Positions 904 to 55,211 of a stretch of 64,000 bases of DNA are shown here, in pieces. Location: contig CALVPQ010000004.1 of NCBI GenBank assembly GCA_944351415.1, positions 86 to 64,085 of the forward strand, read 5' to 3'. The notes under the pieces were generated by a model. That model was not told the DNA's origin. It did no database searches and saw only the letters and a program-made list of their open reading frames with translations. This stretch comes from an uncultured Clostridia bacterium (GTDB lineage Bacteria > Bacillota > Clostridia > Christensenellales > UBA1242). A program made the position numbers and the translations under genes. Every line of letters starts with the position of its first letter. The stretch's first letter is position 1.

Positions 904-979
904 AACTATATTTTACCCTAAAAGTTTAATAAAACAAAACATTTTAAATAAATTTTTGAAAAATACACAAAATAATTTT

Positions 980-1537
980 ATGAAAATAGTAAAAGATATA
1001 TTTTTATATTTAAGTGCCTTTGTTCCTATGTATTTTTTGATATTAACAAGACTTATAATTGATATTATAAATGATAACCTTACTTTTAATGTGCTTAACT
1101 CACTTAATATTATTTTGTTAATCACACTGATAACTCTTGGCTCGGCTGGGCTTATTATAAATGTTTTTCATAGCAAAGACATAACAAAAGAGATAATTAT
1201 TCTTAAAAAACAAAATATAACTGATAGGCACTTTCTTGGCTATTTTTCTCTGTTTGTGCTTTTTGCCCTTCAGCTTGATGTTTCTTACGTTTGCGATTTT
1301 GTGCTGTTTGTTATAATCCTTATCTTTATTGGTATTGTGTATATACATAACTCCCTTTTCTACATAAATCCGCTGTTAAATATCTTGGGCTATAACTTTT
1401 ATAATATCGAATATCTTGAGGTTAAAAGCCAAAGACAGGAAGAAGGTAAAATTTTTTATAAAGGAGAGTTGAAGGTAAACCAGAATTATTTTGTTAAATT
1501 CAAAAATGGCAACTTTGCTTTTATTGATAGAAAATAA
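980..1537 (+). CDS. membrane protein of unknown function (about 4 TM helices plus small soluble C-terminal domain)
   Basis: ORF 956..1537. First ATG is at 980; TTG at 956 is also possible, and neither has a clear SD. Ends 60 nt before the next + strand gene. Confidence 0.55.
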   Translation: MKIVKDIFLYLSAFVPMYFLILTRLIIDIINDNLTFNVLNSLNIILLITLITLGSAGLIINVFHSKDITKEIIILKKQNITDRHFLGYFSLFVLFALQLDVSYVCDFVLFVIILIFIGIVYIHNSLFYINPLLNILGYNFYNIEYLEVKSQRQEEGKIFYKGELKVNQNYFVKFKNGNFAFIDRK

Positions 1538-5729: not shown

Positions 5730-6028
5730 AAAAATAAAAAAATTTATATTTTATAGATAATTTTTTAAAAAAATTATAAGCAAAATTATAAATAATAATT
5801 ATTTATTTTAATTATATAAAAAATATAAATTCTAATTATAAAATTATTTAAAAATCAATTATTTTAATAATTAAAAAATATTTTTATTAATAAAAAATCA
5901 TTAAAATAATTCATTTATAATTAATTTTTTATTATTTAATCTGACTTTAAATTAAATAAAAATAAATTTAATAATTTAAAATAAATTAAAAATAAATAAA
6001 ACTTAAATAAAATATAGGAGCAAAAAAA

Positions 6029-8701: not shown

Positions 8702-8796
8702 GAGCTGTGAAGCTAATTTTTAAAATAAATTTTAAAAATTATCAAAACAACTTGTTGTTTTGAAAGAAGCCGAGAGGCTTCTTAGCTTCACAGCTC
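8702..8796 (+). ncRNA. four-way-junction hairpin module (closing stem + 3 hairpins + T6); candidate structured RNA or branched terminator
   Basis: 14-bp closing stem GAGCTGTGAAGCTA/TAGCTTCACAGCTC. Inner hairpins at 8716-8739, 8742-8763 and 8764-8783 are all perfectly paired. TTTTTT follows. Confidence 0.5.
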
Positions 8797-11589: not shown

Positions 11590-12903
11590 ATGAACGATAG
11601 AAAACTTATAACTCCACGAAAATTGTCGGGTTTTATGGAACTTCCACCCTACAAACAAGTGGTATTTGATAAGATGATTGAAAAAATAAAAAATGTTTAT
11701 CAGAATTTTGCTTTTATGCCACTTGATACACCTGTGCTTGAATATAGTGAAATTCTTATGGCTAAAAGTGGTGGTTCTATAGATAAAGAAGTTTATGCTT
11801 TTAAAAAAGGTGACACTGATATTTGTATGCGCTATGATTTGACAGTGCCACTTGCTAGATATGTTGCTATGAATGTTAACGAGATTGCTTTTCCCTTTAA
11901 GCGTTATCAAATAGGAAAGGTATATCGTGGAGAGAAGGCCCAAAAAGGTAGATTTAGAGAATTTTTGCAATGTGATGCTGATATTGTTGGATTTGATGAA
12001 CTTCCTATTGTTGCTGATGCTGAATGTCTTGCTATTGTTGATAAGGTCTTTAAAGCCCTTGAACTTAAAATTTTAAATCACATTTCAAATAGAAATATTC
12101 TTTTTGGATATTGTGAAGCCCTAGGATATAAAGATAAAACACAAGATATATTGACTATCCTTGATAAAATTGGCAAGATTGGAAAAGAAAATGCAATATT
12201 GGAACTTAATAGCCTAGGTGTTAGCATAGATGACTGCAATAATCTTATAATGCTTACTTTAAAAAATGGGAAATTTTGTGATGTTCTAGATGAAATTAAA
12301 GATTTGACGGATAACGAAACCTATCAAAAAGGTGTAAATGAACTTAGCGAAATTTATAAATATATGCAAGCTATGGGTGTTGATGAAAATTGCTATATTC
12401 TTGATGTAGGAGTTATTCGAGGACAAAATTACTATACAGGAACAGTTTTTGAAGCAATGATGCCAGAACACCCTGAATTTTTAACAGTTTGCGGTGGTGG
12501 AAGATATGATAATCTTGCTGGCTATTATACCGATAAAAAACTGCCTGGAGTTGGGCTTAGTATTGGTCTTACAAGACTCTTTGACCTTTTAGACCAAGCT
12601 GGACTTTTAACTGAGTATAAACTTACAAATATTGAACTTCAAATTATACCACTTGGTGACACCCTTTATGAATGTTTTAAACTTCAAAAGTTTTTCAGTG
12701 ACTTTCTTGTATGTGATGTTAATTATGAAAACCGCTCTTTTAAAGCTAAGATGAAAGAAGCAAATCGCAAACAAATCCCTTTTATCCTTATTGTTGGTGA
12801 AGATGAAATTAATAGTGGTTTGTATGCCTTAAAAGATATGAATAGTGGTCAACAATGGAATTTAGCAAAAGAAGATTGTCTGAAAAAAATCACTGAAAAA
12901 TAA
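11590..12903 (+). CDS. hisS: histidine--tRNA ligase
   Basis: Class II motifs RYDLTVPLARY, FKRYQIGKVYRGEKAQKGRFREFLQCDADIVG, GGGRYDNL, plus a C-terminal anticodon-binding domain. AAAGGAG SD. Confidence 0.93.
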   Translation: MNDRKLITPRKLSGFMELPPYKQVVFDKMIEKIKNVYQNFAFMPLDTPVLEYSEILMAKSGGSIDKEVYAFKKGDTDICMRYDLTVPLARYVAMNVNEIAFPFKRYQIGKVYRGEKAQKGRFREFLQCDADIVGFDELPIVADAECLAIVDKVFKALELKILNHISNRNILFGYCEALGYKDKTQDILTILDKIGKIGKENAILELNSLGVSIDDCNNLIMLTLKNGKFCDVLDEIKDLTDNETYQKGVNELSEIYKYMQAMGVDENCYILDVGVIRGQNYYTGTVFEAMMPEHPEFLTVCGGGRYDNLAGYYTDKKLPGVGLSIGLTRLFDLLDQAGLLTEYKLTNIELQIIPLGDTLYECFKLQKFFSDFLVCDVNYENRSFKAKMKEANRKQIPFILIVGEDEINSGLYALKDMNSGQQWNLAKEDCLKKITEK

Positions 12904-16214: not shown

Positions 16215-16309
16215 ATTTTTAACACATATATAGTTCAACACTCTTTTTAAAAAAATAAGTGCGGGAAAATAAATTTATCTATAAAGGAAGTTGGTGCGGG
16301 AAAAATAAG

Positions 16310-16402
16310 GCGATTGAAAGTGCACACAAATTTTTGTGTGCCAAAAAGCATTTGGCTTTTTGAAAAATTTTAAAGTTCCTTTAAAATTTTACTTTCAATC
16401 GC
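16310..16402 (+). ncRNA. four-way-junction hairpin module in the tmk leader; candidate structured RNA or branched terminator
   Basis: 12-bp closing stem GCGATTGAAAGT/ACTTTCAATCGC. Hairpins 16322-16341 (8 bp), 16342-16362 (8 bp) and 16364-16390 (12 bp) are all perfect. TTTTT follows. Confidence 0.5.
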
Positions 16403-22135: not shown

Positions 22136-22210
22136 AACATTATATATTCTAAAAAATTATTTTATGTTTAAAAATTTTTAGATTTTATAAATAATAGTTG
22201 ACACAAAAAA

Positions 22211-22301
22211 GGTCTAGCAACCACACGCATGAAATGCGTGCAAAAACGCAGAATGCGTTTGGCAACTTTTGAATTTACTTCAAAAGTTGGGCTGCTAGAC
22301 C
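22211..22301 (-). ncRNA. four-way-junction hairpin module between ltaS-like gene and alr; candidate structured RNA or branched terminator
   Basis: Closing stem GGTCTAGCA/TGCTAGACC (9 bp, plus CC/GG after one A-C mismatch). Hairpins 22224-22240, 22244-22260 (both 7 bp, GAA loop) and 22263-22289 (11 bp). The T6 tract is on the - strand (22205-22210). Confidence 0.5.
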
Positions 22302-22374
22302 TGTGGAATGACTGAATTATTTATCATAATAAAATCAATTATAATCTCTTTTTATAACTTTTTTATAATCTAAG

Positions 22375-26256: not shown

Positions 26257-29200
26257 TTATTTTTCAGATTTTGAAGCTTCATAAAATTTCTTCTGAGCAT
26301 TAATTGCTTTTACTATACTGTTGATAACCTTATTTTTATTAAGCCACCAATCACGACTCCATACCCTTATAATTTTCCAACCACGAGATTCAAGAAATTT
26401 ATTGCGGTATACGTCGCGTTCCATAATTGAATCACTGCTTTTGAATGCTGCATAGTCACATTCTATACCTAAAAGGTATCTATCAATATTCTTGTCATAA
26501 ACGGCAAGTGAAAGTTTATAATCTGTGCTACCTAAGTTTGTTTCAACGCTATAACCAAGCTTTGTAAGCTCATCTTTTATATATTTCTCAAGATTATTTT
26601 CAACAATAACATCATTTGTTTCTGGCAAGGCAGGTTTAAAACTATTTAAAACATATTCTGCTTCCTTATATTTCTTGTTGGATATTGCTCTAACATATTT
26701 AAGATAACTCTTAAAAATCTTAGGTCCCGCATTCTTTGTGCCTTCAACAGCAAGTTCTTCTGGTTCTATACTTGTGACGACATATATTTTCTCTTTTGCA
26801 CGAGTGATTGCAACGTTAAGTCTATTTTCGCCACCTTCAACTGAAAGTGGACCAAAGTGAGCAACAACCTTGCCATACTCATTTCTTGCATAACCTATTG
26901 AAAAAATGATTATATCACGTTCATCACCTTGAACATTTTCAAGATTTTTAATAAATATTGATGTGTCTTCCCCATTTTCCTTTCTATTTTGCTCTCTGAT
27001 GTATGCATCGCGGAAAGCGGTGTCTTTATGACATTCTTTATCTATAGCATCTTCTATAGCATTTTCTTGCTCTGTATTAAATGTTATAATACCAATAGAA
27101 CTTTTATTTCTCTTATTTTTTATTAGTTTTTTAAGTAGTGTTACAATAGCCTGAGCCTCTTCCTCATTGTGGCGATTAATCCACTTGCCATTGACCTTTA
27201 TTCTTTCAATTGGTTTATTGCCAACATTTTTTGATATATTAGGTGCAATTTGAAGTTTACCATCATAGAAGGCATAGTTTGAGAAGTTTATAAGCTCTTC
27301 ATTTTTACTTCTATAGTGATATGTTAGGTTTGTGCTTGTATAACGAGAAGTTGCAAGGTCTAGTAAACTTTCAACTTCGAGAGCTGCCTGTGTTGCAAGG
27401 TCAATATCGTCATCACTATCATTGCCAAGGTATCTTTTCATAAAGGTTGCTGTTGGGCGGAGCTGTTTAGAGTCCCCTGCGACAACAATAAATTTTCCCC
27501 TATATATTGTTGGAAGTGTGTTTTCTATAAATACCTGACTGGCTTCATCAAATAAAATTATATCAAACATATTCCGTTTAAGAGGAAATATTGTTGAAAC
27601 ACTCTCTGGTGATAAAAGCCAACATGGGAATAATTTAAGAAGATAATCTCCATAAAGTTCCATCATCTTACGAACTGGCATAAGTGCCTGTTGTTTTGTG
27701 ATTTGATATAGATAATTTTTATTATCAGGGTCGCTATTAAAATGTTCCACATAATCACTTTTAAACTTATCAATTGCTATTTCGCTTGATATACGTTTTT
27801 CATCTGCTTTTAAAGACATAATTCTGTTACGTATATTCTCAAAATCAATAATCTTTGAAAGTTTTTCTTTGTTAAGTTCTTCATAGGTTACTGCTTCATG
27901 ATATATTCTTATCTCTAATATTCTGCCAACAATATCTTGAAATTGCCTTAAATTCTTAGAATTTGTAAAGGCAAAGTTAAGAATGGTTTTTTCATCATCT
28001 GTAAGCCCCTGAAGTGAAACATTAACATCACGAATTTCAACATAATCATCAAGAGCATTCAATAGTAACTTTAAGAAAATTGTGTTGCCGTTGACAATAT
28101 TATCAACAGTCATTAGGTATCCTTTTCTATCAAGAACTTTCTCAAGTAAAGAATAATTGCTTATATAATTTTTTATATCATTTAAAGTGCTTTCAAATTG
28201 AGATGCAATCTCTTTTTCCTTCTTGTTTAAGTTATATTTAACAAATGGATAAGCTGGGAATAGAACTTTTGACCAATTTAATGCTTTATGCAACTTTGGA
28301 TAGTCTATTTTTGAAATCATTTTTACAAGCGGTTTGGTGTTTTTGCTGTCTTCTATATCATTTTCAAGCATATATACCATAAGTTGTCTTGCATGTGGGT
28401 GTTTTGCTGTGTCAAAAGGTATAATTGTTTTTTGAATAAGTCCATTTAGATAAGTTTTCATCTGATTGATAACATGAATATCAACATCTGCCCTGATATG
28501 GTCAATAAGTGGATTTGTCTTCTTTAGTTGTATATATCTATAATAAAGTGCTGCCTTATTCTTCTCTTTTATAACTCTGATTGTTTGATAAAGATGTTTG
28601 TAGTCCATCTTCATTATTTCATGATTTTTTAGCATAAGTTTATAAAGCACATAGTCGTTGCTTGTTTTGCCAATTCTAGCAGAATTTGCATACATCTCTT
28701 GCAGTGTTAGCCCAAATGGAGTTTTTGTGAAAAGTGTGTCTGATATAACCTGCAATTCTTCCACTTCTTTTTGAATATTTTTCTCGACAATGGCATACTC
28801 ATCATTTTCTTCTCTGGCATGATATGAACCCATTAAGGCTTGATGCATTTTATTGCAACGTTCATAAAATTCCACCTTATTCTTTTCTGCATCTGTTATA
28901 AACATACATTTTGAATTTAAGGTTTTAAGACGGTTAAATACAACGTCGAGCGCAGCCTTTTTTTGAGATACAACAAGCACTCTTTTATTTTTACAAAGTG
29001 CATCAGAGATGATATTAACAATAGTTTGTGATTTACCTGTTCCTGGTGGACCATATATGACCAAATTGCCAGATTGGTTAAGTTTTGCAATCGCATTTTC
29101 TTGAGCATAGTCAAGGTCGTTTATTGTATATACCCTAGGGTCAATCTTTTTAAGTTTCTTGCTTTGCTTGCCTTGAAGAAGCTGGTCAATCGCTTCGCTT

Positions 29201-30084
29201 GTTAATCTCTTCTTCTCGAGAAGAGAGTAATCATTATATATTGCGTTTGCAAGTGGAAATCTTCCTATAACACAAGTATTAACAATTTTTAAACCATCAT
29301 CTTTAAAAGATGGTTCTTTTATGCTATCAAACCTAACAAGACCTTTATTTGCTTTTTTAAAGTCGTAATCAAACTTAAAGCCGTAAGCTGAAAGATAATC
29401 AAGAACATCTGCTATATTTTTTAATTTATAATCAACAAGGTTATCAAACTCTGTAATAAGCCCCTCATAATTAATGCGATGTTCTTTAGCATAAGCAAGT
29501 AAAAGCACCTTATTAATTTGAATAAGCTCATCATGTTTTGCCTCTATTGATACCGTTTGGTCATCTTCAATATTGATTGTGACAGGGAAAAGTATAAGTG
29601 GACCTTTGATTTGAATATCTTTGCTAAGTTGCCCTACAACAAAAGGATAGCCAATAAACATTTCATATCGGCCTGTTTCTTTTGCGAACTCTTCAATCTC
29701 TCTCTTCAAAGCCTTAAGCTGGTTTACTTGTGAAAGCAGAAGCTTTTTCATTTCTTCCTTCTTTACCCTTTCACGACGAAGGTTCTCACTTCTCTGTTCT
29801 TCAGTTGACATTCCTTTTGTGTCTACAAAAGAAGCTTTAATCTTTGTTTCAAGATTAAAATTTTTTGCAAGTCGTTGCTTTGTATCTTTTCTTATTAATG
29901 CATAGCTTGAACGTTTGCCCTTCCAAAGAAATGTAAGAAATTCATCAAGTTCGTCAGCATCATCTCCTATTACCGCACCAATATCATAGGCATATTTTTT
30001 GCTTAGATTTTTTGAATACAAACTTCGGTTTTTTCCGCTTATTTCTATAAGTCTTTCTTTATAATATGTATAAATTGATTTCAT
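26257..30084 (-). CDS. DUF4011-type SF1 (Upf1/DNA2-like) helicase fused to a C-terminal PD-(D/E)xK (DUF559/Vsr-like) nuclease domain
   Basis: GYPFVVGQL...PLILFPV (DUF4011-like), Walker A IYGPPGTGKSQT, ILFDEASQV, VVAGDSKQLRPT, YHYRS, VQGDERDIIIFS, RLNVAITRAKEKIYVV. Tail is LGIECDY...RDVYRNKFLESRGWKIIRVWSRDWW. Start set to ATG 30084 (GGAAGAG SD) to avoid overlap with rnhB. Confidence 0.8.
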   Translation of the reverse strand: MKSIYTYYKERLIEISGKNRSLYSKNLSKKYAYDIGAVIGDDADELDEFLTFLWKGKRSSYALIRKDTKQRLAKNFNLETKIKASFVDTKGMSTEEQRSENLRRERVKKEEMKKLLLSQVNQLKALKREIEEFAKETGRYEMFIGYPFVVGQLSKDIQIKGPLILFPVTINIEDDQTVSIEAKHDELIQINKVLLLAYAKEHRINYEGLITEFDNLVDYKLKNIADVLDYLSAYGFKFDYDFKKANKGLVRFDSIKEPSFKDDGLKIVNTCVIGRFPLANAIYNDYSLLEKKRLTSEAIDQLLQGKQSKKLKKIDPRVYTINDLDYAQENAIAKLNQSGNLVIYGPPGTGKSQTIVNIISDALCKNKRVLVVSQKKAALDVVFNRLKTLNSKCMFITDAEKNKVEFYERCNKMHQALMGSYHAREENDEYAIVEKNIQKEVEELQVISDTLFTKTPFGLTLQEMYANSARIGKTSNDYVLYKLMLKNHEIMKMDYKHLYQTIRVIKEKNKAALYYRYIQLKKTNPLIDHIRADVDIHVINQMKTYLNGLIQKTIIPFDTAKHPHARQLMVYMLENDIEDSKNTKPLVKMISKIDYPKLHKALNWSKVLFPAYPFVKYNLNKKEKEIASQFESTLNDIKNYISNYSLLEKVLDRKGYLMTVDNIVNGNTIFLKLLLNALDDYVEIRDVNVSLQGLTDDEKTILNFAFTNSKNLRQFQDIVGRILEIRIYHEAVTYEELNKEKLSKIIDFENIRNRIMSLKADEKRISSEIAIDKFKSDYVEHFNSDPDNKNYLYQITKQQALMPVRKMMELYGDYLLKLFPCWLLSPESVSTIFPLKRNMFDIILFDEASQVFIENTLPTIYRGKFIVVAGDSKQLRPTATFMKRYLGNDSDDDIDLATQAALEVESLLDLATSRYTSTNLTYHYRSKNEELINFSNYAFYDGKLQIAPNISKNVGNKPIERIKVNGKWINRHNEEEAQAIVTLLKKLIKNKRNKSSIGIITFNTEQENAIEDAIDKECHKDTAFRDAYIREQNRKENGEDTSIFIKNLENVQGDERDIIIFSIGYARNEYGKVVAHFGPLSVEGGENRLNVAITRAKEKIYVVTSIEPEELAVEGTKNAGPKIFKSYLKYVRAISNKKYKEAEYVLNSFKPALPETNDVIVENNLEKYIKDELTKLGYSVETNLGSTDYKLSLAVYDKNIDRYLLGIECDYAAFKSSDSIMERDVYRNKFLESRGWKIIRVWSRDWWLNKNKVINSIVKAINAQKKFYEASKSEK

Positions 30085-30184
30085 GCTTCTCTTCCTGTTT
30101 CCGTAAATTTTTATATATATATATTTTAACAAAAAAAATAAATATTTCAATATAAAAGCTAAATTTATTTTAATTATTTTTAAA

Positions 30185-30775
30185 TTATTTTTCAACAAAT
30201 TTTTTTATAAAAGTTTGTCGATGTATTTCACAGCTTCCATACTTTTTTAATGCTTCAATATGTTCCTTTGTTCCATAGCCATTATTTTTTGCAAAATTAT
30301 ATTCAGGATATATATTTGATAATTCTTTCATAAGTCTATCTCTATGCACTTTAGCGAGAATTGAAGCGGCTGCAATGTTATAACTGAGAGCATCACCATG
30401 GATTATATTTTCTTGTGGCAAATTAGTTTCTATTTTTACAGCATCAATTAAAACTATTTCAGGTGTTACAGATAAATTCTCAAGTGCTTTTTTCATTCCA
30501 AGTTTCGTGGCATTTAATATATTTATATCATCTATTATTTTTTCATCTATCTCAACTACTTTATAAGAAAGTGCAATAGAAACTATCTTTTCGTAAAGCT
30601 CTTCTCTTTTTTTCTGGCTAAGTTTTTTGCCGTCGTCTATTCCTTCTATAATTTTTTCGTCGCTTAGTGGCATTATAACACAAGCACACACAACAGGACC
30701 TGCAAGTGGTCCTCGCCCTGCTTCGTCAATTCCTGCTATAATTTTCCCCTGATATTTTCTTTCGTAGTCTAGCAT
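30185..30775 (-). CDS. rnhB: ribonuclease HII
   Basis: GIDEAGRGPLAGPVV active-site motif, 196 aa. Confidence 0.92.
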   Translation of the reverse strand: MLDYERKYQGKIIAGIDEAGRGPLAGPVVCACVIMPLSDEKIIEGIDDGKKLSQKKREELYEKIVSIALSYKVVEIDEKIIDDINILNATKLGMKKALENLSVTPEIVLIDAVKIETNLPQENIIHGDALSYNIAAASILAKVHRDRLMKELSNIYPEYNFAKNNGYGTKEHIEALKKYGSCEIHRQTFIKKFVEK

Positions 30776-31016: not shown

Positions 31017-31093
31017 GCGCCGCTAGCTCAGCTGGATAGAGCGTTCGTCTACGGAACGAAAGGTCAGGGGTTCGAATCCCTTGCGGCGCACCA
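31017..31093 (+). tRNA. tRNA-Arg (anticodon ACG) with encoded CCA
   Basis: GCGCCGC-TA-GCTC-AGCTGGATA-GAGC-G-TTCGT-CTACGGA-ACGAA-AGGTC-AGGGG-TTCGAAT-CCCTT-GCGGCGC-A-CCA, a full 77-nt cloverleaf. Confidence 0.95.
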
Positions 31094-33105: not shown

Positions 33106-34305
33106 ATGAAAAAGTTTGTAGCTGTTAGAAATTTAAGACTTTGCACTAAGGATTGTTTATGTTTGTATGTTTGCCCTTATGGAGCAACTGACACAGAAAA
33201 TAGTGTGATTGACGTTGAAAAATGTGTTGGCTGTGGTGTTTGTGCCAAAGCCTGCCCTAGCAAAGCAATTTCGATGGTGCCAATTGAACTTCCACCACAA
33301 CAGAAAAAAAATGAAAAAGTTGTAAATTCACTTAACAAACTTGTTAAAAATAAAGTTAAAGTGGAAAATATGGCAAAACAGATAGCAGAAAATACCGATA
33401 ATGATAATCTATATAGACTTATGAAAGCTTTTGAAAAATCTAGTAGGTTTATGGCAGAGGACCTTATAAGAGAAGCCGGATATATGCTTCCACAAAGCAA
33501 AAATACACACGATTTTCTTAAAAGTATGATAGACAATCCGCCTAGCAGCAATTTCCCTATTGAAGTTGCAAATAAAATACTTGAAAAACTGCCTTGCAAT
33601 GAGGAAAACACAGAAGAAAATGTTGATTTAAATAAAAAGGAGAAAAATATGAAAAAATATAAATGTAAAATTTGTGGAGAAATTTTTGAAGTTGAAGATG
33701 GAAAGGAACCTGTTTGCCCAGTATGCAAGGCGACAGGCAATAATTTAGAACTTATTGAAGAAAAAAAGATAAATAAATATGCAGGAACTGAAACAGAAAA
33801 GAATCTTCAAACTGCTTTCGCTGGTGAAAGCCAAGCAAGAAATAAATACACTTTCTTCTCTTCTGTTGCAAAAAAAGAGGGCTATGAACAAATTGCCGCA
33901 CTATTTTTAAAAACCGCTGAAAACGAAAAAGAACATGCAAAAATGTGGTTCAAAGAACTTAATGGAATTGGTGATACTGCTGAAAATCTTGAAGCGGCTG
34001 CCGATGATGAAAACTATGAATGGACTGATATGTATGATGGTTTTGCAAAGACAGCTGAAAAAGAAGGCTTCCCTGAACTTGCAGCAAAATTCCGTCTTGT
34101 TGCAGCCATCGAAAAACATCACGAAGAACGATACCGTGCACTTCTAAGAAATGTTGAACTGAAACAAGTGTTTGAAAAATCAGAAGTAAAAATTTGGGAA
34201 TGTAGAAATTGTGGACATATTGTTGTTGGAACAAAAGCTCCTGAAATTTGCCCTGCCTGCAATCACCCTCAAAGTTTCTTTGAAGTATGTGCAGAAAACT
34301 ATTAA
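33106..34305 (+). CDS. multidomain rubrerythrin: 4Fe-4S ferredoxin domain, linker, rubredoxin-like domain, diiron ferritin-like domain, C-terminal rubredoxin domain
   Basis: [12 protein letters not shown]; [18 protein letters not shown]; [35 protein letters not shown]; [31 protein letters not shown] before ATG 33106. An internal AAGGAG+ATG lies at 33649. Confidence 0.85.
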
Positions 34306-34332
34306 AATTATATGAAATTCCTTACAAACTTT

Positions 34333-34359
34333 AGATGGACTTAAATGTCCATCTTTTTT
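34333..34359 (+). terminator. intrinsic terminator of the rubrerythrin gene
   Basis: AGATGGAC-TTAAAT-GTCCATCT followed by T5. Confidence 0.8.
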
Positions 34360-34392
34360 ATAGTTTTTTATTTTTTATAACAAAAAATAAAG

Positions 34393-34493
34393 GGGCGAGT
34401 TTGCAAAAAAACTCAACAGAGTTTTTTTAGGCAAAACCTGTTTTGCCTTTAAAAGTTAAATGCTACCAGCATTTAACTTTTGCAAACTCGCCC
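34393..34493. ncRNA. four-way-junction hairpin module lying between two independent terminators; candidate structured RNA
   Basis: Closing stem GGGCGAGTTTGC/GCAAACTCGCCC (12 bp, extendable to 16). Hairpins 34405-34428 (10 bp), 34429-34448 (8 bp) and 34451-34481 (14 bp) are all perfect. A T-rich tract lies on the - strand side. Confidence 0.5.
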
Positions 34494-34610
34494 ACTCCAT
34501 ATCCCTCCGCTTATATATTGTTTATGAAAATATATTTTTGATTTAAAATTTATCATTAAAATTTGCCTTTTTTTTAAATTTTAAATGTATATTCTTTAAA
34601 TAATCTATTA

Positions 34611-34641
34611 AAAAAAGAAGATTGGTTGAATCTTCTTTTTT
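34611..34641. terminator. bidirectional terminator downstream of the MBL-fold gene
   Basis: AAAAAAGAAGATT-GGTTG-AATCTTCTTTTTT, 13 perfect bp. Confidence 0.75.
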
Positions 34642-34660
34642 ATAAATTTAAAATTTTAAT

Positions 34661-43594: not shown

Positions 43595-46500
43595 TTATCC
43601 ATTATAATCGGTATCCCAACTTAAGTTTAGTGTGCCAAGGGTTAGTAAACCAGATGCATCGCTATCGTTATTTATATCCCTATCTGTTCCTGAAACTTTC
43701 ATTCTGATTATAATCTTTATATATTGGTCATAAGTGAATGAATCAAAGAATGTGATTGTTCCTGCTGCGTCTACTTCCGCATTACCAGAAGCACCATCAG
43801 TTGCATCAAGTGTGAAAGTAAAGTAGTTTGTATAATTTGCTATGTCTTGAGGGTTATCTCTGTTAACATCAAGATTGCTATTTGCATATAGTAGACTGAA
43901 AGCATCACCCCAACCAAGCTTTGTAATTGTAGAAGTTCTGCTTCCTTCACCGCCATCTAAGGTTACGAATGGAATAATTTCTAAAGTTGATTCACGTTGA
44001 AGAGCATAGTATTTGCCAGTTACAAAATAGTTCTTAGATACTCTATAGTTGAATGGAGTGTCTGTGCCCTGTCCGCCAAAATCTATACTTACAATATAAT
44101 ATTTTCTTACATTATAGTATTGTCTAGCTTCCAGTAAAGATGCATTTTCAACATAAATAATATCATCTTTAATTGAAGTTATGCTTATTCTGTCTGCATC
44201 AGCAGCTGTCAGGCTTGTGCTACCAGTTTCATTATCAGTAGTTTGTGAACCATCTGTATTATCAGTTTTGTCTTCTACAAGATTTATAGCAAACGTTTCA
44301 CTATCTTCTGGTAGATATACGTTATATTGATAGTATGATGTTGAAACTATTTCTTCATTAATATCATCAGCGGTATTATAAACATAATAGAATGTTGCAT
44401 TTTGGTCACGTGGAATAATCTCTAATTCATCACCAATTTTAATATTTGTTCTTAGGTATTGAGATATAGAAATGTAAACCGTTCTTGCCCAACTATATCC
44501 TGTGTTATTAATATTTACAATAGCTGGAGTATCGTTATAACGTTCTTTCTCGCCGTCGCCATCAGTATCTCTATACAAATACAATTCAAAGTTTGTTAAA
44601 CGGCCACCGCTTACTAAAACTTCAAGCGTATCATTAATAAAACTAAATTCTATACCATCAGAATTTTCAAGGTCTTCGCCACCACTCATTATATCAAATT
44701 CATCAATTAAAGTAAAGGCTTCTCCATCACGGACAGGTGCTTGTTCTTCCTCAAGAATTGATACTTCTCTTGTGATTGTAACGTTTACCTTTAAATCGTA
44801 ATACTCAATTACACCATTGTTATTATATTCAAGTCTAACAACCATCTGAGCATCTGCGGTATTGCTTTCTTCAAATAAATCAGTGTTTTCAATACGTGGA
44901 ACTTGGAAAGGTAGATATTCCTGACCTGCTACAACATTTGGCTGTTCTGCATCGCTTCCTGGATTTCTATAAGGGTCTCTAAGTGCAGTAAGCCCATTGA
45001 AAACAGTCTCTCCGCCACCCACTTCATTTGAACTTGTTATAGTGGCAAGTGTGTAACCCGTTGTTCCACTTCTTGTTTGTATTGTTGTCTGCTGTTCTGT
45101 TGTGTCTGATTCTTCTGTTGAAAGTTGTGTTTCTGTGTCTGTATCTCCAGTTAAAACTGGTGCTTCTGTTGGTTCTATTGGACTATTAATAATTGGGTTG
45201 TCTTCCATATCATAGAACATGATTGAATCTACAGATATATAGTTTAGCATAGGCACTTCAAAATATTCTTCATCTTCTGAAAGATTTGGCCATTTTGCAA
45301 GATTTTCATCAACTTCTATTGTATAGCCACCTTCCTGTTTTGCAACTAATCCACTATCCGTGATTGATGTTGGGTCTGAACTGAATAGATAAGCCTCTAT
45401 GCCTGTGATTTCAATAAGTTCAACTGTGCCATCAACATCTTCTGGTGGATAAGTTTGTGCATTGATATAGTAGCTACTGCTATCATTATTACCGCCTTCT
45501 TCTATTTGAACACTAAGAAGTTCATATTGTGCACCAAAATCAAGATAGCCAAGTTCGGTAAGTGCAATAGTATCCGCATTTATTTCAGGAGGTGAATATG
45601 AAGACTGCAAACTGAAATATAGAATATAAGTGAAACCATAAGGGTCTACTGCTTCAATATAATAGTATTGAGTTCCAAAAATAACTTCTTTTACAGAATT
45701 AAACGTTGTATTTTGACCTTCTCTGAGTGTATAGGTTTTGCTATTTTCATCATATATCCAAACCCTATCATCAGCAGTGCCTTGTATTATTGCATTTAAG
45801 TCTTCGCCTAATTTTTGCCCTACATTTGTTTCATTATTGTATTCAACACCTTCTATTGTTGAACCTGGAACATTCATTGTGATTGTAAAGTTTGAAGTTG
45901 CAAGTTCTACCGATGTGTTTTCACCATTTGTATGTCTTACTGAAACATGACCTTCTTGACCTTCTGTAAGTGAGTCTGAATCTGTTAGTGTGAAGCTTGA
46001 ATATACATTTTGACCATCAACTGTGATAAGGCTGGCAATATTGTATACATTACCCTCGTTTGAAACTACTGCACTATTTGTATCAACTTCTACAATATTT
46101 CCGCCATAAGTTATTTGATAGTCTGGAACTATTTTTACAACAATATAAAATTCTTTTTCATAGCTTACCGAGCTATCTTTTATAGGAACAGAGTATGTGA
46201 GTCTTGTGAGAACAAAATCACCTTGATTATCTGCTCCAAGTGGCAATAACCTATAGTCATAAGCATATTGCCCTGCATTTAGAATAGCAGATGAGAAGAG
46301 ATAGACATATCTATTTGTTCCATCACTATTAGCTTCAATACTGAAGCCCTCGCTTGCAATACCATAAGTTGAAATATATCCATCAAGAATTGCAACTAGC
46401 TCGGTATCATTTTCGTCTATATCTGATACGTTATTTCTGCTTTTATAATTAACACTTTCAAATGTTAAAGTTGCTCTGTCTGCACCAAAGTCACCTTCAA

Positions 46501-49500
46501 TAATATATTCCCCTGTTGTTGGGTGGCGAACACCAAAGAGTTCAACCATGCTTTGTATTTCATAGTTTACTTCAAGTTCAATATAGTTATATAAACTTGA
46601 AATTTCTGCATCTACTGCAATATCAATACTTGGCATAAAATAATAGTTTAATGATAAATCCAAAATATTATTTGTGCTACCATCATCTTTATCAATTCCT
46701 TGTGTTCCATTGCCCTCAGTGTTATTAAATACAGGTATGAAGTTTATTGTATCTTCTATATAATTTTCAAAATCAAAGCCTGATAGTGCAATTCCATAGT
46801 AACTATAAGCAATAGGCTCACCATTTGCTCCACCATATAGAAGTTGGATTCTGTTTGTTAGAGCTATACTTGAGAATATTGATTGATTTGAATCACTATT
46901 TGCAAGTTCTCTAATATCCGCAAATGTTGCATCTTGTGTTGTTATAGTTTCCCCTGCTGTTACTTTGGAGATTATTCCATCTGTTCCAACAGTAAGCATA
47001 TTTTCTTCAAAGAGTAAAACTTCATAGGTTCCAACATAGACAAAATTGCTTCCATCTGTATTTGCCATACTGTAGCCAAGGTCTAAGTTTGCTATTTGCC
47101 CTGAATAACTTGAATCTATATATTGTGGATATGATGCATAGAATTTTATGCTTTCATCTGTGCTATAGCCACTTCTTTCAGCAAATACAACATAATACGA
47201 ACCTTGTGCTGTTACTTCATTGCTAAATATCACACTTGCCATTCTGTTTTGGCTAAATAATCCATCTGTTGAAGTTTTATCAACGTATATTGTTTCGTAA
47301 TTTACAAGTGTTTGGTTGCCACCTTCATCAGAATAAGTTCCGCTTGCAATATTGGCACTTACATAATTTATTTGGGCAACAACAGAATTTGTAAGAATAT
47401 AAACAGTATAGTCACAAGAAACTTCTTGATAAGTTATTCTGAATGTTACATAAGAATCAGTTCCATTATCATTGAATATAATTTCATTGCTACCTGATAC
47501 TGACGTAAAGGTGCCACGTCTAAATGTGATATTTTCATCAAGCCCTATCTCACTGCTTGGCAAGTAGTTCGAATAGCTAGTTACGTTATCTCCATTTATT
47601 TCGCTGTAGACACTTGCATTTGCCATTGAAAGAACTGTGATTGAAAGGTTTTCGTTATTTATTTCGGCTGGTGCGTTATTATATACAGCACTTCCTTCCA
47701 AAATCTCGCCTTGCATAATTGTGATTCTGTTAACATTGCCTTCAGAATTATTAAATGCTGGCTTATGGAATATAAAGTCTGTAAGAATATTTGTAAAGCC
47801 TGTGCCATCATCTATAAATTCTCTTGTTAATTCTTCCCCGTTAGGTGAAGGATAATTTGCTTCTAAAGAAACACTCTTATATACGTTAAATGAGAATGTG
47901 ATTGTGAATGTTTGATATACCACAGCTGATAAGTCTGAATTAGAATTATAGTTAAAGTATAATGAAACAATCATATTTACATCAACACTTGTGTCGCTTG
48001 CAATATAGTCTGTATGAATTGTTGTGCCTTCTATTGATACAAATGCTGGGCTTGAAGATGAGCCATTATATACAACGTTTGTATTGCCATAGCTATATTT
48101 AACACTAAATATACCATCTTCATCTATTATTAAATCTTCTCCTGCAAGAACAACTCCACCGTTTGCACTTGTTCTATATACAACGTTTTGCCCTAGAGTT
48201 AAGTTTGTGGTGAATGTGAAGTTTTGACCGTCATAAATACCACCTCTGAATGTGATTGTGAAACTGAGAGTTATATTATAACTTCTGATAAGGTCAGCAA
48301 CAATAAATGTTGAATTTCCATCAAATACTATAAAGTCTGTGCCATCAAAACCATTTATATCTTGGGTTGAACTTGTTATCGAATCTAGTGTTATAGTATA
48401 ATCACTTCCTGAAAGTGAGGTTTCTTCACCATTAAGTCTGATGTTGAATATATCTGTAAATTCATAAGAGTTTCCACCTGCAAGAGTATTATTATCTACC
48501 TTAACATCATAACTTGCAGTTGCATCTATATTTATTATAAGTGTTGCAAGATAACCTTGTTCTGTGTAGAGTGTGAACTCTATCTGTCTGTCGCTTGATA
48601 TATAATTTGCAAAAGTGATTGTGAATAAACCTTGATTTGCTTGAGATGAATCGTAAGTGAAAGATTCAACTGCTGATTCTACATTCAAGCCTATTTCTTG
48701 ATTTTCAGCACGTTCACCAGTCATTGAAATTTGAAGTATATCCCATACTTCTGTATAGCTTTGGGCAGAACCAGTGATATAACCTTCAAGCAATCTTATA
48801 TCCATAGATAATGTTCTATTATCTGATGATGCAATACTTTCTCTAGTAATATCCCAAGTATAAATTTCATTGTTTGAATCAGTTATAACTGTAGAGTTGC
48901 CTTCTTCAAATCTTACTGAATAATTATAGGTTGTGGTATTAAGAATAAAAGTATAGTATTGTTCGCCACCAATAACCGCTAAATCATCATCTTGAGCACC
49001 ACCTTGATAGCTGTGTTTAATGTTAATTGTGATTTGCTCACTGGTGTAGGCTGTGTAATACATCTGAGAATAGTCATCTGAGAAATAAATTCGTATATAA
49101 TTTGACCAAGTTTCTTCGCTAAAATAAGGGTTTTCACCAACAACAACACTTTCAACTTCATTAACGTAGCTTAAATCAGAGAAAACTCTTGTGCCATTGT
49201 ATATAAAGCTACCTTCACCTGTAATTATTTTGATTGTAAGAATATCGTCTGTTGCAATTTCAAAATTTTCAGTTGAATCAGGAGCTTCAGCTGCTTCCAA
49301 AGCTTCAGCAAAAACTTCTTCTAAATCAATAATTCTTTCATCTTCTGAAATGGTGACAAATTGAGCATCTGTTTTGAGTTCGCCATTGCTGTTATATAAA
49401 GCAAACCATACCTGCATTTCACTGTCTGGGATTACTTGAAGCTCTGTTATAGTGGTTTGAACTGTGTTTATTTCAGTTTCATTATACCTTATTTCTCCTG

Positions 49501-52500
49501 CACCTGAAATGCTTCTTATTGTGAATCTATCACCCCTTTCAACATCACCAAAGAGAGCTGTGAGGTCTATTGTTTTATCAAGTGTTGTGATTGTTATAAG
49601 TTGTGGCTGGCCATTAATCTCATCAGAACCATCTATTGGTGTTATTAGAACTGTCATATCACTTGTTACAGACACATCTAATGTGGTTATGATTTGTTCT
49701 TCACCACCTTCAACACCTTCGGTTCCTATTGAGTCTATTGTTATATTTCCATTTACTAAATTGCTATTGATTAAAGGTATTTGTTTTGTGATATTAAATC
49801 TCTTTTGATTTTCATTTAATGTTGTTGCACCAAATACATTATCAAGTTCCACCATATTTTCACTGTCGACATCACTTTCTAAAAATTCTGAATTTCCATT
49901 ATAGCCATAGACAGAATTATCAACAATAACGTCTGGAATGACTTTGAGAACATAATAGAATTCTCGACTGTCGCTTGAATTTGAAATTGTGTATCTTAGT
50001 GCCAAATAGAAGTTATCCATAGTGCTTGTAAGGTGATTAAGAGAAAGCTCTGCCACCCTTTCATAAACACCACTTTCAACTTGTTGTGTTTCTATAGAAA
50101 TTAATTTTTCAATTTCAGAATTTGCTTGAACCGAACCTGTTGTGTCTACAGGATAATAATCTACACTTATTGAAAAACTTGGATTTGAAAGCATATATAA
50201 GCCATTTGACAACTCTTCTCCAAAGGTATATTCACTTAAAATTTGTGTTACCTGACCTGCGGATACTGTGTCGTATATTCCATTTTCTATAAGTGTATTA
50301 GGTTCAGTCATTGCAGTTGCAAGTTTATCTGCATTATCAACTCCGCTTTCATAATTTACATAATCAAAACCAATAGATGAAATTATGATTGGCACATACA
50401 TTACTGCAATAGTTCCAGGGAACTCTGGTTTTTCACCATTGTTTTCATTATCTGAGCCAAAGTATACAACCATAAATAATTCTTCGCCATCAAGACCTTG
50501 GAATAATCTATTGCTTGAATTTCTTGTTGTAAGCCTTGTTCCTGTTAATGAAACAGCCATTCCTGTTTCATCTTCAACAATATGCCCTGTTGAATCGTAG
50601 GTTACACCTAAATAATTAGTGGTTGATTCTGCATTGCCTGATGTTGAGTATGTTCTTAAGTTGCCATAAATATTAAATCCATTATTTTCAGTTGTTCTTA
50701 CAAAATCATCATTTAAGAACCATGTTCCTTCTTGAAGCATGATATATTCAGTTGAACCTATATTTTGAACTTCTGCCTTTATATTATAGTCAGAATCATA
50801 AGATATAAGTGATGCTATATATTCATAAAGGTCAAAATTATCGCCTTCACTATTTGTATATAATCTTATTTTGATTTCAATAGAGCCAAGTTCCACTCTG
50901 TTTATTATAGTGTTATTAGCCCCACGAACTAAATAATTAATATATAGTGTTGTGGTAAGTTCAGTTGTGTTATAGTCGAATACAAAGAAAGCATCTTCAC
51001 TCTTTGTTATGTTTCCGTTTTCATAAACTAAATAATCTGAGAATACATATTCCACATCAATTCCGGTAATAGCCGTATCGACTTCGCTTCCACCAGCTGT
51101 TGACATTCTACGCAGGCTTACAAAATCAGATTCAACATAGTTTGTTCCACTATTTATTATATAGTAAACATTTTGTTGGTCGTATATAGCAAGGTCTCGC
51201 GTTACAACAAAACTTATTGTTATGCTTAATGTGAAGTTATTATCACCATCTGGAGCAAAGATTACTGAGTATGTTTGAGATGGCTCATTCCAAAAATCTT
51301 CAAATATTATCGTTCCAGCTGAAATTGTTTCATCTCCCATTGCGTAGTCTTTTACATAGAAAATTCCTACATAAGATGTTGCACTTTCTTCTAGAATATA
51401 ATTATTTCCACTTCTTACAATATAATAGAGTGATTCGCCATCATCATAGAGTGAAGCCAAAGAATTATCATAAGCTTGTGACAAGCTGTTTAGATAATTA
51501 TTTGTTACAGTATTTTCAAGTTCTAGTGAAGCACTTGCATATAAGGTTTCACCATTATTTGGATAATTTTGTGATGAAACTGATACGTTTGGCAAAAGGG
51601 TTAAGCTTAATGTTGAACTAATTGCCCCATTTTCGCCAGTATCTGAAATGGTAAATCTTATTATATGGTCTACTGAAAAATCTTTATTAATTAAAATACT
51701 TGTGATTGATTGACCACTTAAGGCTGCTCTTATTGATGCTGCAGTGCCATCTAGCCCTGATATTATACCCGTCTCACTATAAAGTGTAAGCATTCCATCA
51801 TATCCAAAAAGGTCTTCAATCATCTCATCGGTTATAGTGCTATCATTTAGATATTGTTGGCTGAATTGGAAACGAATATTGTTATATTGTGTTCTATTTT
51901 CATCTTCGCCAATATAAAATCTTGCAAGTGTGTGAAGATTGATAACATCTATAGCACCATCTGATTTTGCACCATACTTACTTACTGCAATATTTGAAAT
52001 ATCTGGTTCTTCTGTATAGTTATCGTTTGTAAATGGGTCAAGTGAATCTGTGCTTTCAGCATAAGTGATACCAACAGAAGAAATATTTAAGGTCATAAGT
52101 TGCCCATGAGTTAAACTTGTTGCATTGCCATCTATACTTTCAAGTGCAAGAGAAACAACAGCACCTTGGGCTTGTCTAAATGTGAAAGTCTGTCCGTTTA
52201 AGTTGATTGCATCGGTTGAACCACTTTCAATTATAAATCTCCACTCTCCAGCAAGAGTATCTGTTCTTTGTTTTTGGTCTGTTATAGTTACATAACTGTT
52301 ATCAACACCAAGAAGCCTAGTTAAAAGTTCGGATACACTTGTAAGTTGAGTTATTTCAAGACTGATAGTTGTTGTGAAATTACCGCTTGCATTTAAAATT
52401 TGATTTACATAGATGGTGTCTTGCCCTGTTATAAAATTGTTATAATCATAAGCACCTTCTGGGGCAATTTCAATATTTGTTGCCACTGGGCTATAAATAC

Positions 52501-54829: not shown

Positions 54830-55211
54830 TTAAGGCACCTCACCTTCAAAATTGTATTACAATTATATTATAAATTTTTACCACAAAAAAGGCAAATAAA
54901 TTTTGCTTTTTCTTATAGTTTTATATAGTTTTAATAAACTATTATTTATTATAATTATTTAGGGCAAAAATATTTAAAAATTTAAAAATATTAAAAATAA
55001 GATTTTTATCATTTTTTATTAAATAAAAGTAGAAATTTTTATTAAAAATAGAATTTTTTATTAATTTTTATTAATTTTTTTATTTTTTTTAAAAAAATTT
55101 TAGAATTAATTTAATTTTAATATTTTCAAGTATTTTATTTCCTAAATCACTTTTTGTTGACATACACAAATTTTTCAATTATAATTAACTAAATTTAAAG
55201 GAGATTATTTT

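Follow-up and report, generated by a model that had tools for sequence, protein, structure and literature searches.

A clade-restricted family of four-way-junction modules at gene ends in uncultured gut Clostridia, and their possible role in ending transcripts

A 64,000-nucleotide stretch of contig CALVPQ010000004.1 from an uncultured Clostridia bacterium (assembly GCA_944351415.1, positions 86 to 64,085; hereafter the window, G+C content 31%) carries, between two convergent genes, a 101-base segment that folds as a perfect four-way junction and which we call M4 (window 34393–34493). On one side of M4 is an MBL-fold gene, whose stop codon lies 168 nucleotides (nt) before the module on the same (−) strand, and on the other a gene for a ferredoxin–rubrerythrin fusion. 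Each gene has a plain terminator, as the initial annotation of this segment had stated. That of the rubrerythrin gene (34333–34359, + strand) consists of a hairpin at 34333–34354 and a T-run, has a folding energy of −12.3 kcal/mol and is called by a consensus terminator scan. The hairpin behind the MBL-fold gene (~34611–34641, − strand, upstream of M4 on the same strand) is real and weak, with −12.2 kcal/mol and two G–C pairs; it is recognisably kept in L085 (core AGAAGAT...ATCTTCT), where L-numbers such as L001, L085 or L116 denote loci from relatives or conspecific assemblies that were compared with the window.

The M4 core comprises 44 base pairs (bp) and two unpaired junction nucleotides. 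Its 12-bp closing stem, in which 7/12 pairs are G–C, joins GGGCGAGTTTGC (34393–34404) to GCAAACTCGCCC (34482–34493) and encloses three hairpins: hairpin 1 (34405–34428, AAAAAAACTC-AACA-GAGTTTTTTT, 10 bp), hairpin 2 (34429–34448, AGGCAAAA-CCTG-TTTTGCCT, 8 bp), which is the best-kept part among the relatives of M4 (L116_M1p and L126b), and hairpin 3 (34451–34481, AAAAGTTAAATGCT-ACC-AGCATTTAACTTTT, 14 bp). The sole unpaired junction bases are the TT linker at 34449–34450; the helices measure 12, 14, 8 and 10 bp and the linkers 0/2/0/0. All the coordinates given for M4 in the initial annotation agree with the sequence, including those of hairpin 1, of which only the written string was one base short in each arm. 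The 16-bp alternative register proposed for the closing stem also exists (GCAAAA/TTTTGC), and the homology between arms permits 4 bp of branch migration.

The four-way junction is both the minimum-free-energy and the centroid structure predicted by RNAfold on either strand, at −52.7 kcal/mol on the + strand (z −10.8) and −53.8 kcal/mol on the − strand (z −11.3), with 0/200 shuffles equal in each case. With DNA parameters the energy is −40.5 kcal/mol (z −12.1). M4 is base-for-base the same in three further conspecific assemblies from other samples, with no variation within the species there, and a second module of the window, M2, is likewise the same across independent conspecific assemblies; an assembly artefact is thereby rejected. 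One contig, L125, ends within the loop of M4 hairpin 3, a typical assembler break at a palindrome.

The flanks of M4 differ between the strands. On the − strand, which we take to be the functional one, the closing stem is followed directly by a U-tract (34381–34392, C-TTTATTTTTT-G), and the module is preceded by a G-rich, Shine–Dalgarno (SD)-like flank (34494–34510, GCGGAGGGATATGGAGT) that pairs with this tract. AUGGAG of the flank pairs with CUUUAU of the tract through A–U and G·U pairs, which adds six pairs and −5.5 kcal/mol on the − strand only and brings the fold with flanks to −58.9 kcal/mol. No T-run follows the module on the + strand. The consensus terminator scan does not call M4, whose stem encloses 77 nt, that is three hairpins and not a simple loop. 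We also considered a small open reading frame (ORF) at the 5′ flank (− strand, 34494–34510 / 34452–34496), in which GGAGG is followed 5 nt on by an ATG and 14 codons (MEWASLQKLNAGSI, then a stop). It runs into the closing stem and the first hairpin and is not kept in L126b or L085, so it was treated as a chance occurrence and rejected.

M4 is not the only structure of its kind in the window. When a 110-nt frame was slid along the whole window and folded, the four segments of lowest energy all consisted of a closing stem and three hairpins, M4 being the best of them, and a purpose-built detector, which seeds on closing stems and counts branches, returned exactly M1, M2, M3 and M4 over the 64 kb and nothing else. 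M1 (8702–8796, + strand) lies at the junction of gyrA and a UvrD-like helicase gene, 58 nt past the gyrA stop, is followed by TTTTTT and has an orthologue in L119. M2 (16310–16402, + strand) lies between a DAP_DH_C-like gene and tmk, is followed by TTTTT and the tmk ribosome-binding site (RBS), and has orthologues in L115–L122. M3 (22210–22302, − strand) lies between a sulfatase-family gene and alr, 73 nt past the stop of the former, is followed by TTTTT and has orthologues in L115–L121, being absent from L119. All three are 58–96 nt downstream of stop codons, and behind gyrA, the DAP_DH_C-like gene and the sulfatase-family gene no other hairpin- or terminator-like structure is present before the next gene. 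The four window copies cannot be aligned with one another (M4 against M1, M2 and M3: z ≤ 1.0).

What the copies share is their anatomy, which we tabulated, together with the pairing, over 17–18 modules from the window and its relatives. The modules are 83–125 nt long, four-armed, and contain 36–50 bp in total. The closing stem has 9–13 bp and is sometimes lengthened, with bulges, to ~27–31 bp, and exactly three hairpins of 5–15 bp each are present in all 18 modules. Loops have 3–6 nt without a consensus, the junction linkers total 0–5 nt, and no unpaired nucleotide of loops or junction is conserved. M4 has every one of the features that define the family: a closing stem and three hairpins, no more than five unpaired junction nucleotides, a match to the covariance model described below, an intergenic position, and membership of the same clade. 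A geometric rule that we tried, namely equal coaxial stacks of ~20–22 bp, holds approximately and not beyond expectation. The pairing itself is very pure. Among ~811 pairs in the cores, G·U accounts for 11 when the sense strand is read and for 5 when the antisense strand is, so that more than 98% are Watson–Crick on both; plain hairpins with a T-run, collected from the window as unvetted candidates, have 24/247 G·U (~10%).

The pairing is also conserved in place. The nearest genomes are metagenome-assembled genomes of uncultured Clostridia from gut samples, at no more than 86% protein identity. Relatives fetched via their M16 peptidase (72–76% identity) and U32 peptidase (57–77%) keep the gene order and carry modules at the same junctions. 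Among the M2 orthologues the closing stem and one hairpin are almost unchanged and the other two hairpins differ by compensated substitutions: in 8/38 pairs both partners have changed, whereas shuffles give 2.8 ± 1.2 (0/500) and slid registers 0–3. For M3 the corresponding figures are 8/39 pairs, 3.4 ± 1.1 (0/500) and 0–1. Four compensated pairs separate M1 from its counterpart in L119, and one compensated pair distinguishes strains of a single species (GTACA...TGTAC against GTAAA...TTTAC). The intergenic DNA around the modules hardly aligns between species. Compensatory changes at the same junctions in such surroundings argue that the pairing of the modules is under selection where they stand.

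A covariance model built from four M2 orthologues only, R1, recognises the rest of the family in spite of the lack of alignable sequence. The E-values were 4e-10 for L091, 3e-9 for M3, 7e-9 for the leader module of L116, 1e-7 for M1, 2e-5 for L126a, 2e-4 for the module at the gyrA site of L116, 1.5e-3 for M4 (− strand), 4e-3 for L126b and 0.012 for L085. In 414 kb R1 found nothing beyond the modules, and in 745 kb of loci from other Clostridia it gave no match, the best E-value being 0.69. Apparent matches in G+C-rich relatives proved to be chance folds in coding regions. Together with the z-scores, the zero matches in the 745 kb of control loci led us to reject chance folding as an explanation of the modules. 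Relatives whose MBL protein is at most 68% identical have only plain hairpin terminators after the gene. The modules thus form one structural class, restricted to a clade of uncultured gut Clostridia, in which they occur at about one per 10–18 kb. The species of the window has 4 in 74 kb; extending the sample by 10 kb past the right end of the window brought no further module to light, and the left end is also where contigs stop. The initial annotation had argued that M4 has a function of its own, and a conserved, covarying, clade-specific family of fixed topology, in which M4 has sequence relatives at non-orthologous loci, bears out that part of the argument.

The flanks of the modules are polar with respect to transcription. 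A T-run stands directly 3′ of the module on the sense strand of the upstream gene in M1 (+), M2 (+), M3 (−), M4 (−) and most orthologues. At 5/10 independent loci the 25 nt on the 5′ side of the module, read on the sense strand, contain a G-rich, SD-like patch, defined as at least six G in 10 nt, against a background of 1.6% in random 25-mers from the window. When the closing helix is extended by pairing flank with flank, all modules together gain 55 pairs on the sense strand, 18 of them G·U, compared with 24 on the antisense strand, of which 1 is G·U. This one-stranded, wobble-dependent flank pairing tracks the direction of the genes, which argues that the modules act as RNA.

The M4 site has a varied history in the relatives. 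An MBL 3′ region with a module is found in four lineages (the window, L085, L126 and L002/L128). L127 has a 71-nt spacer and no module at the MBL site. In L085, whose MBL protein is 91% identical, the MBL-fold gene is followed first by a plain, homologous terminator, next by a module whose outer stem is long, and then by a signal-peptide gene whose product starts MSLKIKLMS. In L002, L128 and L129 a module lies 8 nt past the MBL stop. L126 has the longest arrangement: the MBL-fold gene, a plain terminator, module a with a T-run, a near-consensus promoter (TTGACA-N16-TAAACT, with a G-rich spacer), a small GC hairpin, a long leader with module b, a DUF6273-family gene (MSLKIKLMS...), a bidirectional terminator and the rubrerythrin gene on the opposite strand. 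The closest rubrerythrin relative, L001, has only a bidirectional hairpin beside that gene, from which it follows that the module belongs to the MBL side of the spacer.

Part of the L126 arrangement recurs elsewhere as a cassette, made up of a promoter (TTGACA-N16/17-TAnACT) with an unusually G-rich spacer, a GC hairpin (GATAGYCGCC...GGCGRCTATC), a four-way module and a DUF6273-family signal-peptide gene (MS[FL]KIKL...). It occupies different loci in different genomes (L116 15560–15810, L117 9000–9245, L126 15020–15600) and is absent from the window. In L116/L117 this promoter–hairpin–module–gene unit sits between uvrC and hisS, where L115, from the same species, has other sequence. The species of the window lacks both the DUF6273 gene and the cassette hairpin. 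M4 may, on the sequence comparison, be the remnant of a module from the structured leader of the DUF6273-family cassette that relatives carry at the same site; the intergenic DNA is too diverged from that of L126 for deletion end-points to be placed.

Similarity between modules was scored against a fold-preserving null, under which M4 has significant partners in two cases only, the gyrA–helicase module of L116/L117 (z 9.6) and L126b (z 8.7), both 0/200. The parts in common are the hairpins AAAAACTC... and AGGCAAAA...TTTGCCT and the TT linker, and M4 hairpin 1 is shared with the gyrA–helicase module of L116/L117 and in part with L126b. L126a resembles the leader module of L116 (z 13.6) and L091 resembles M2 (z 6.2), again 0/200 each. 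Conversely, one and the same junction can hold unrelated modules, as with M1 and L116_M1p, or with M4, L085 and L002b. Because related modules stand at different, non-orthologous loci, some duplication or mobility of modules is real.

Two observations on L002 concern the edges of a module. A 15-nt direct repeat, TCTTCTGCAAGCCTC, is present at 12574–12588, the 3′ end of module a, and at 12624–12638, 36 nt downstream; it may be a trace of module insertion or duplication. An LRR_5/BspA-like coding sequence abuts module a on the − strand.

The reading that we favour for M4, to which on the sequence alone we would give about an even chance, is that it serves on the − strand as a branched intrinsic terminator and 3′-end cap behind the weak terminator of the MBL-fold gene. 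The three inner hairpins would form first and draw the strands of the G+C-rich closing stem together; the stem would then zip up directly before the tract C-UUUAUUUUUU, and the transcript would be released as at an intrinsic terminator. The terminal U's would next be tucked into a helix with the G-rich 5′ flank by A–U and G·U pairs. In this way the module would add to the weak MBL terminator a second and very strong stop, by which the convergent rubrerythrin gene would be shielded from antisense transcription. In addition, a 3′ end that is fully paired, offers no single-stranded foothold and contains no helix above 15 bp would resist 3′ exonucleases and avoid presenting a long perfect duplex; this exonuclease-resistant cap we infer from established principles of termination and RNA decay. 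The conclusion of the initial annotation that M4, being flanked by two canonical terminators, is not needed for termination and is no ornate terminator is not supported, since the U-tract and flank pairing on the − strand match the layout of M1–M3, and it is plausible that M4, in tandem behind the weak MBL hairpin, is the main or the back-up stop.

Several points weigh against this interpretation. Transcription through M4 and a 3′ end at ~34381–34390 on the − strand are both predictions from the sequence, and the MBL-fold gene has its own hairpin and T-run, so little transcription may reach M4. Members that lack a U-tract occur in 5′ leaders or between divergent genes (L116/L117 15631–15755, L126b, L091, L002a), from which it follows that termination is not the sole role of the family; the leader-type copies without a U-tract (L116/L117, L126b) suggest that the same fold is also a 5′ barrier. 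The G·U and flank statistics include orthologues that are not independent, and a sign test over independent loci gives only 7 to 1. Long and short hairpins follow one another in no set order with regard to transcription, M1 and M3 matching R1 better when reversed; recombination between the arms of the closing stem would be expected to invert the interior and leave the fold unchanged. Finally, the near-total Watson–Crick purity of the helices is unexplained, and selection on RNA only does not usually produce it.

The initial annotation had offered an independent small RNA among several roles for M4. In its most explicit form this would be a free-standing transcript of ~130–140 nt from the − strand, started at a promoter of its own at ~34556–34529, comprising the G-rich leader and the junction, ending at the U-tract and acting in trans or as a protein scaffold. 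We think this unlikely. There is a weak promoter-like site upstream on the correct strand (34529–34556, read 34556→34529, ATGATA-16-TATATT, 9/12), the U-tract would give a defined 3′ end, and the module is fixed in the species. The homologous modules of L116/L117 and L126 stand directly downstream of the near-consensus promoter (TTGACA-N16/17-TAnACT), and AAATTTTAATGATA in the window resembles AAATTTGCTTGACA in the cassette. However, promoter-like matches in this AT-rich spacer are near chance (5 found against 2.4 ± 1.4 expected), no promoter is conserved upstream of the L085 module, and the loops and junction hold no conserved unpaired nucleotides for recognition of a target or ligand. M1–M3, moreover, lie inside co-directional gene pairs with neither room nor signal for promoters of their own. 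The search for a promoter thus yielded a site no better than chance; this site, which may have decayed from an equivalent of the strong promoter in the L116/L126 cassette, is not evidence of function.

The dispersal of related modules described above would also fit selfish mobile DNA of the MITE (miniature inverted-repeat transposable element) or repetitive extragenic palindrome (REP) type, in which the cloverleaf is the folded single strand seen by a transposase, as for REPs and their associated tyrosine transposases (RAYTs) or the ends of IS200/IS605, and M4 is a neutral insertion. Besides the sequence-related copies at non-orthologous loci (M4/L116, M4/L126b, L126a/L116 leader and M2/L091) and the unrelated copies at one junction, the variable presence of modules (L119 lacks M3 and L127 the MBL-site module) and the almost purely Watson–Crick pairing on both strands are in keeping with such an origin. 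As a full account we nevertheless find it rather improbable. There are no target-site duplications: M1–M4 and most other copies have no abutting direct repeat of 4 nt or more, even with the boundaries floated by ±3 nt. Neither near-identical copies nor a parent insertion sequence turned up in the sequence covered, 74 kb from this genome and ~190 kb from the clade, and there is no transposase among the annotated neighbours, no similarity to PLSDB plasmids and no exact match on IMG/VR viral contigs. Orthologous copies persist at the same junctions with compensated substitutions, which implies selection in place, and the flanks carry a polarity oriented by transcription. Of the initial suggestion of a mobile insert, then, a degree of duplication or mobility stands.

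A related and more speculative proposal, which we regard as doubtful, is that recognition is of the folded form itself. A clade-specific junction-binding protein would recognise the sequence-free four-way junction, as single-stranded or cruciform DNA or as RNA, a recognition that would keep the pairing Watson–Crick on both strands; the same machinery would copy modules between loci, and the host would co-opt them as universal transcript end-caps. Such a system would be a cloverleaf analogue of REP/RAYT with topology as its code.

A role in RNA processing or stability overlaps largely with the favoured role as terminator and end-cap, and sequence alone cannot separate the two. Here the module would block nucleases, shielding the downstream mRNA from the 5′ exonuclease RNase J and the upstream mRNA from 3′ exonucleases, or would mark the G-rich flank for cleavage by an endonuclease; M4 itself would be left over from a leader, orphaned and at present without a role. 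In favour are the leader-type copies without a U-tract, which have a strong promoter on one side and the RBS of a DUF6273-family gene on the other (L116/L117, L126b), the position of M2, which ends 8 nt before the tmk RBS, and the lack in the window of the DUF6273 gene that follows an M4-like module in L126. As a separate explanation of M4 we hold it to be very unlikely.

A role at the level of DNA, another suggestion of the initial annotation, would have the cruciform or single-strand cloverleaf mimic a Holliday junction and serve as the target of a nucleoid or junction-specific protein, which would bind or process it in the course of replication, recombination or chromosome organisation. The perfect 4H junction with essentially no unpaired bases and a possible 4-bp branch migration, the equal stability with DNA parameters (z −12.1), the strong avoidance of G·U, so that both strands fold equally well, and the non-polar order of the internal hairpins would all suit such a role. 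Against this, arms of 5–15 bp are short for extrusion from duplex DNA, and the T-run and G·U-dependent flank pairing are strand-specific and track gene direction, which a symmetric DNA role does not predict. All copies are in transcribed intergenic positions, beside gene ends or in leaders, and the helicase and recombination genes nearby are ordinary housekeeping genes. We therefore consider a DNA role highly improbable. That M4 is an inert relic is disfavoured by its invariance in all sampled strains, a point weakened by the low diversity of the species, and by its well-placed U-tract. A tRNA or tRNA-like identity was rejected, ARAGORN and Rfam finding only tRNA-Arg (31017–31093) in the window.

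M4 shares much with known intrinsic terminators. It lies downstream of a stop codon in sense orientation, its G+C-richer stem is followed immediately by a U-tract with which an upstream purine tract can pair, and a tandem arrangement behind a weaker hairpin is common among terminators. The modules differ in that three perfect hairpins take the place of the loop, giving a closed four-way junction, in a topology that is fixed at three hairpins, conserved with covariation and specific to a clade, and in that some copies stand without a U-tract in 5′ leaders. The published ‘cluster-hairpin’ terminators consist of hairpins in series, which are not enclosed by a stem (PMC8355165).

REP elements of Escherichia coli are dual 3′-UTR (untranslated region) terminators and mRNA stabilisers, including between convergent genes (bioRxiv 10.64898/2026.03.23.713779). 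Like REPs and the bacterial interspersed mosaic elements (BIMEs), the modules are dispersed, structured intergenic elements at gene 3′ ends or between convergent genes, with locations that vary by lineage. REPs, however, are single imperfect palindromes of 20–40 nt with a conserved sequence, hundreds of similar copies and a link to RAYTs, whereas the modules share topology and not sequence, are perfectly paired and four-armed, and occur about once per 10–18 kb; no RAYT (Y1 transposase) is present among the annotated genes of the window and the relatives' loci. The arms of the closing stem amount to perfect terminal inverted repeats of 9–13 bp, as in MITEs, and the modules differ from these in lacking target-site duplications and near-identical copies (74 kb of this genome, ~190 kb of the clade).

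The pneumococcal BOX and RUP elements, the Correia elements of Neisseria and the bcr repeats of Bacillus cereus are intergenic repeats of ~100–150 nt with stable predicted RNA folds. Some are co-transcribed with their neighbours, affect termination or processing and show compensatory changes; they are defined by a sequence consensus and terminal inverted repeats, often with target duplications. A perfect four-way junction that encloses exactly three hairpins has, to our knowledge, been reported for none of these families.

Integron attC sites resemble the modules in keeping structure while sequence changes, in folding from one strand, in lying at gene 3′ ends and in their association with variable gene cassettes. 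They differ in being single imperfect hairpins with R and L boxes (GTTRRRY), extrahelical bases and an adjacent integrase. M4 has no GTTRRRY core at its ends, its helices are perfect, and its neighbours are the rubrerythrin and MBL-fold genes, with no IntI; most modules flank core housekeeping genes. With tRNA the modules have in common a four-way junction of similar overall size, and they differ in having no unpaired junction or variable-loop nucleotides and no conserved D or T loops, and in their helix lengths, which are wrong for tRNA. A search with Rfam 15 families gave only the tRNA match in the whole window, and a permissive scan of 34300–34660 reached at best 26 bits against a threshold of 60. 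Full-text literature searches returned no description of conserved four-way-junction terminators or repeats. We conclude that the module family is previously undescribed: it is akin to terminators and to repeats of the REP/BOX/Correia type, and lacks the defining features of each.

The structure, the family and its covariation are solid and unusual, and it is the function that we infer. If the proposed function is correct, a lineage of uncultured gut Clostridia with low G+C content uses, in place of some of its ordinary hairpin terminators, a standardised RNA fold with four arms, which is kept by covariation while its sequence is nearly unconstrained. The modules would be a natural branched intrinsic terminator and RNA end-cap, and would pose the question of whether a stem that closes a multiloop can release RNA polymerase. 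They would bear on RNA decay, as structures with no single-stranded entry site and no helix above 15 bp, and synthetic biology in AT-rich hosts could gain from them a compact insulator part whose sequence can be programmed. The scarcity of G·U pairs and the spread of related copies raise the further question of how palindromic modules arise, stay perfect and move.

Some further observations concern M2. Given its distance from the tmk RBS, the tmk mRNA must include M2 or start inside it. A promoter-like sequence, TTGAAA-16-TAAAAT (10/12; 16360–16387, + strand), lies in the 3′-most hairpin of M2 and is the only such site in the spacer; this hairpin is the stretch of M2 that has hardly changed in any of the relatives. 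It may be that tmk is transcribed from inside M2, which would then combine a stop with the next start. Upstream of M2 a direct repeat, GTGCGGGAAAA(A)TAA, occurs twice (16261–16275 and 16295–16309, + strand), the second copy abutting the closing stem. The module orthologous to M2 is open in frame with tmk in three assemblies, L115/L117/L118 (for example L115 11376–12149), and there gene callers have run tmk on across it by 42 codons, giving 257 residues in place of 215; the module is the cause of this misannotation.

Elsewhere in the window and in neighbouring strains, a few features may be recorded. Near tRNA-Arg (31017–31093), to the left of ~31.4 kb in the window, L123 (1–70) and L124 (1–170) differ in having a rolling-circle Rep gene (PF23343, REP_ORF2-G2P) versus RNase HII, which looks like an integrated small single-stranded DNA element. 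Two extremely AT-rich segments with dense, long, imperfect inverted repeats lie at 5741–6001, between gyrA and a small ORF that is adjacent to gyrB, and at 54976–55135, upstream of a 3744-residue gene and an ABC-F gene. The 3744-residue ORF (43595–54829, − strand) has a conserved position beside a cardiolipin-synthase-like PLD gene, and its syntenic relatives are 3557–3655 residues long with no Pfam match on record. A 1313-residue DUF4011/AAA_11/AAA_12/MTES_1575 helicase–nuclease is encoded at 26257–30198 (− strand), and the product of a gene at 956–1537 (+ strand) matches KwaA (PF28043, by annotation from L132); both genes may be related to defence.

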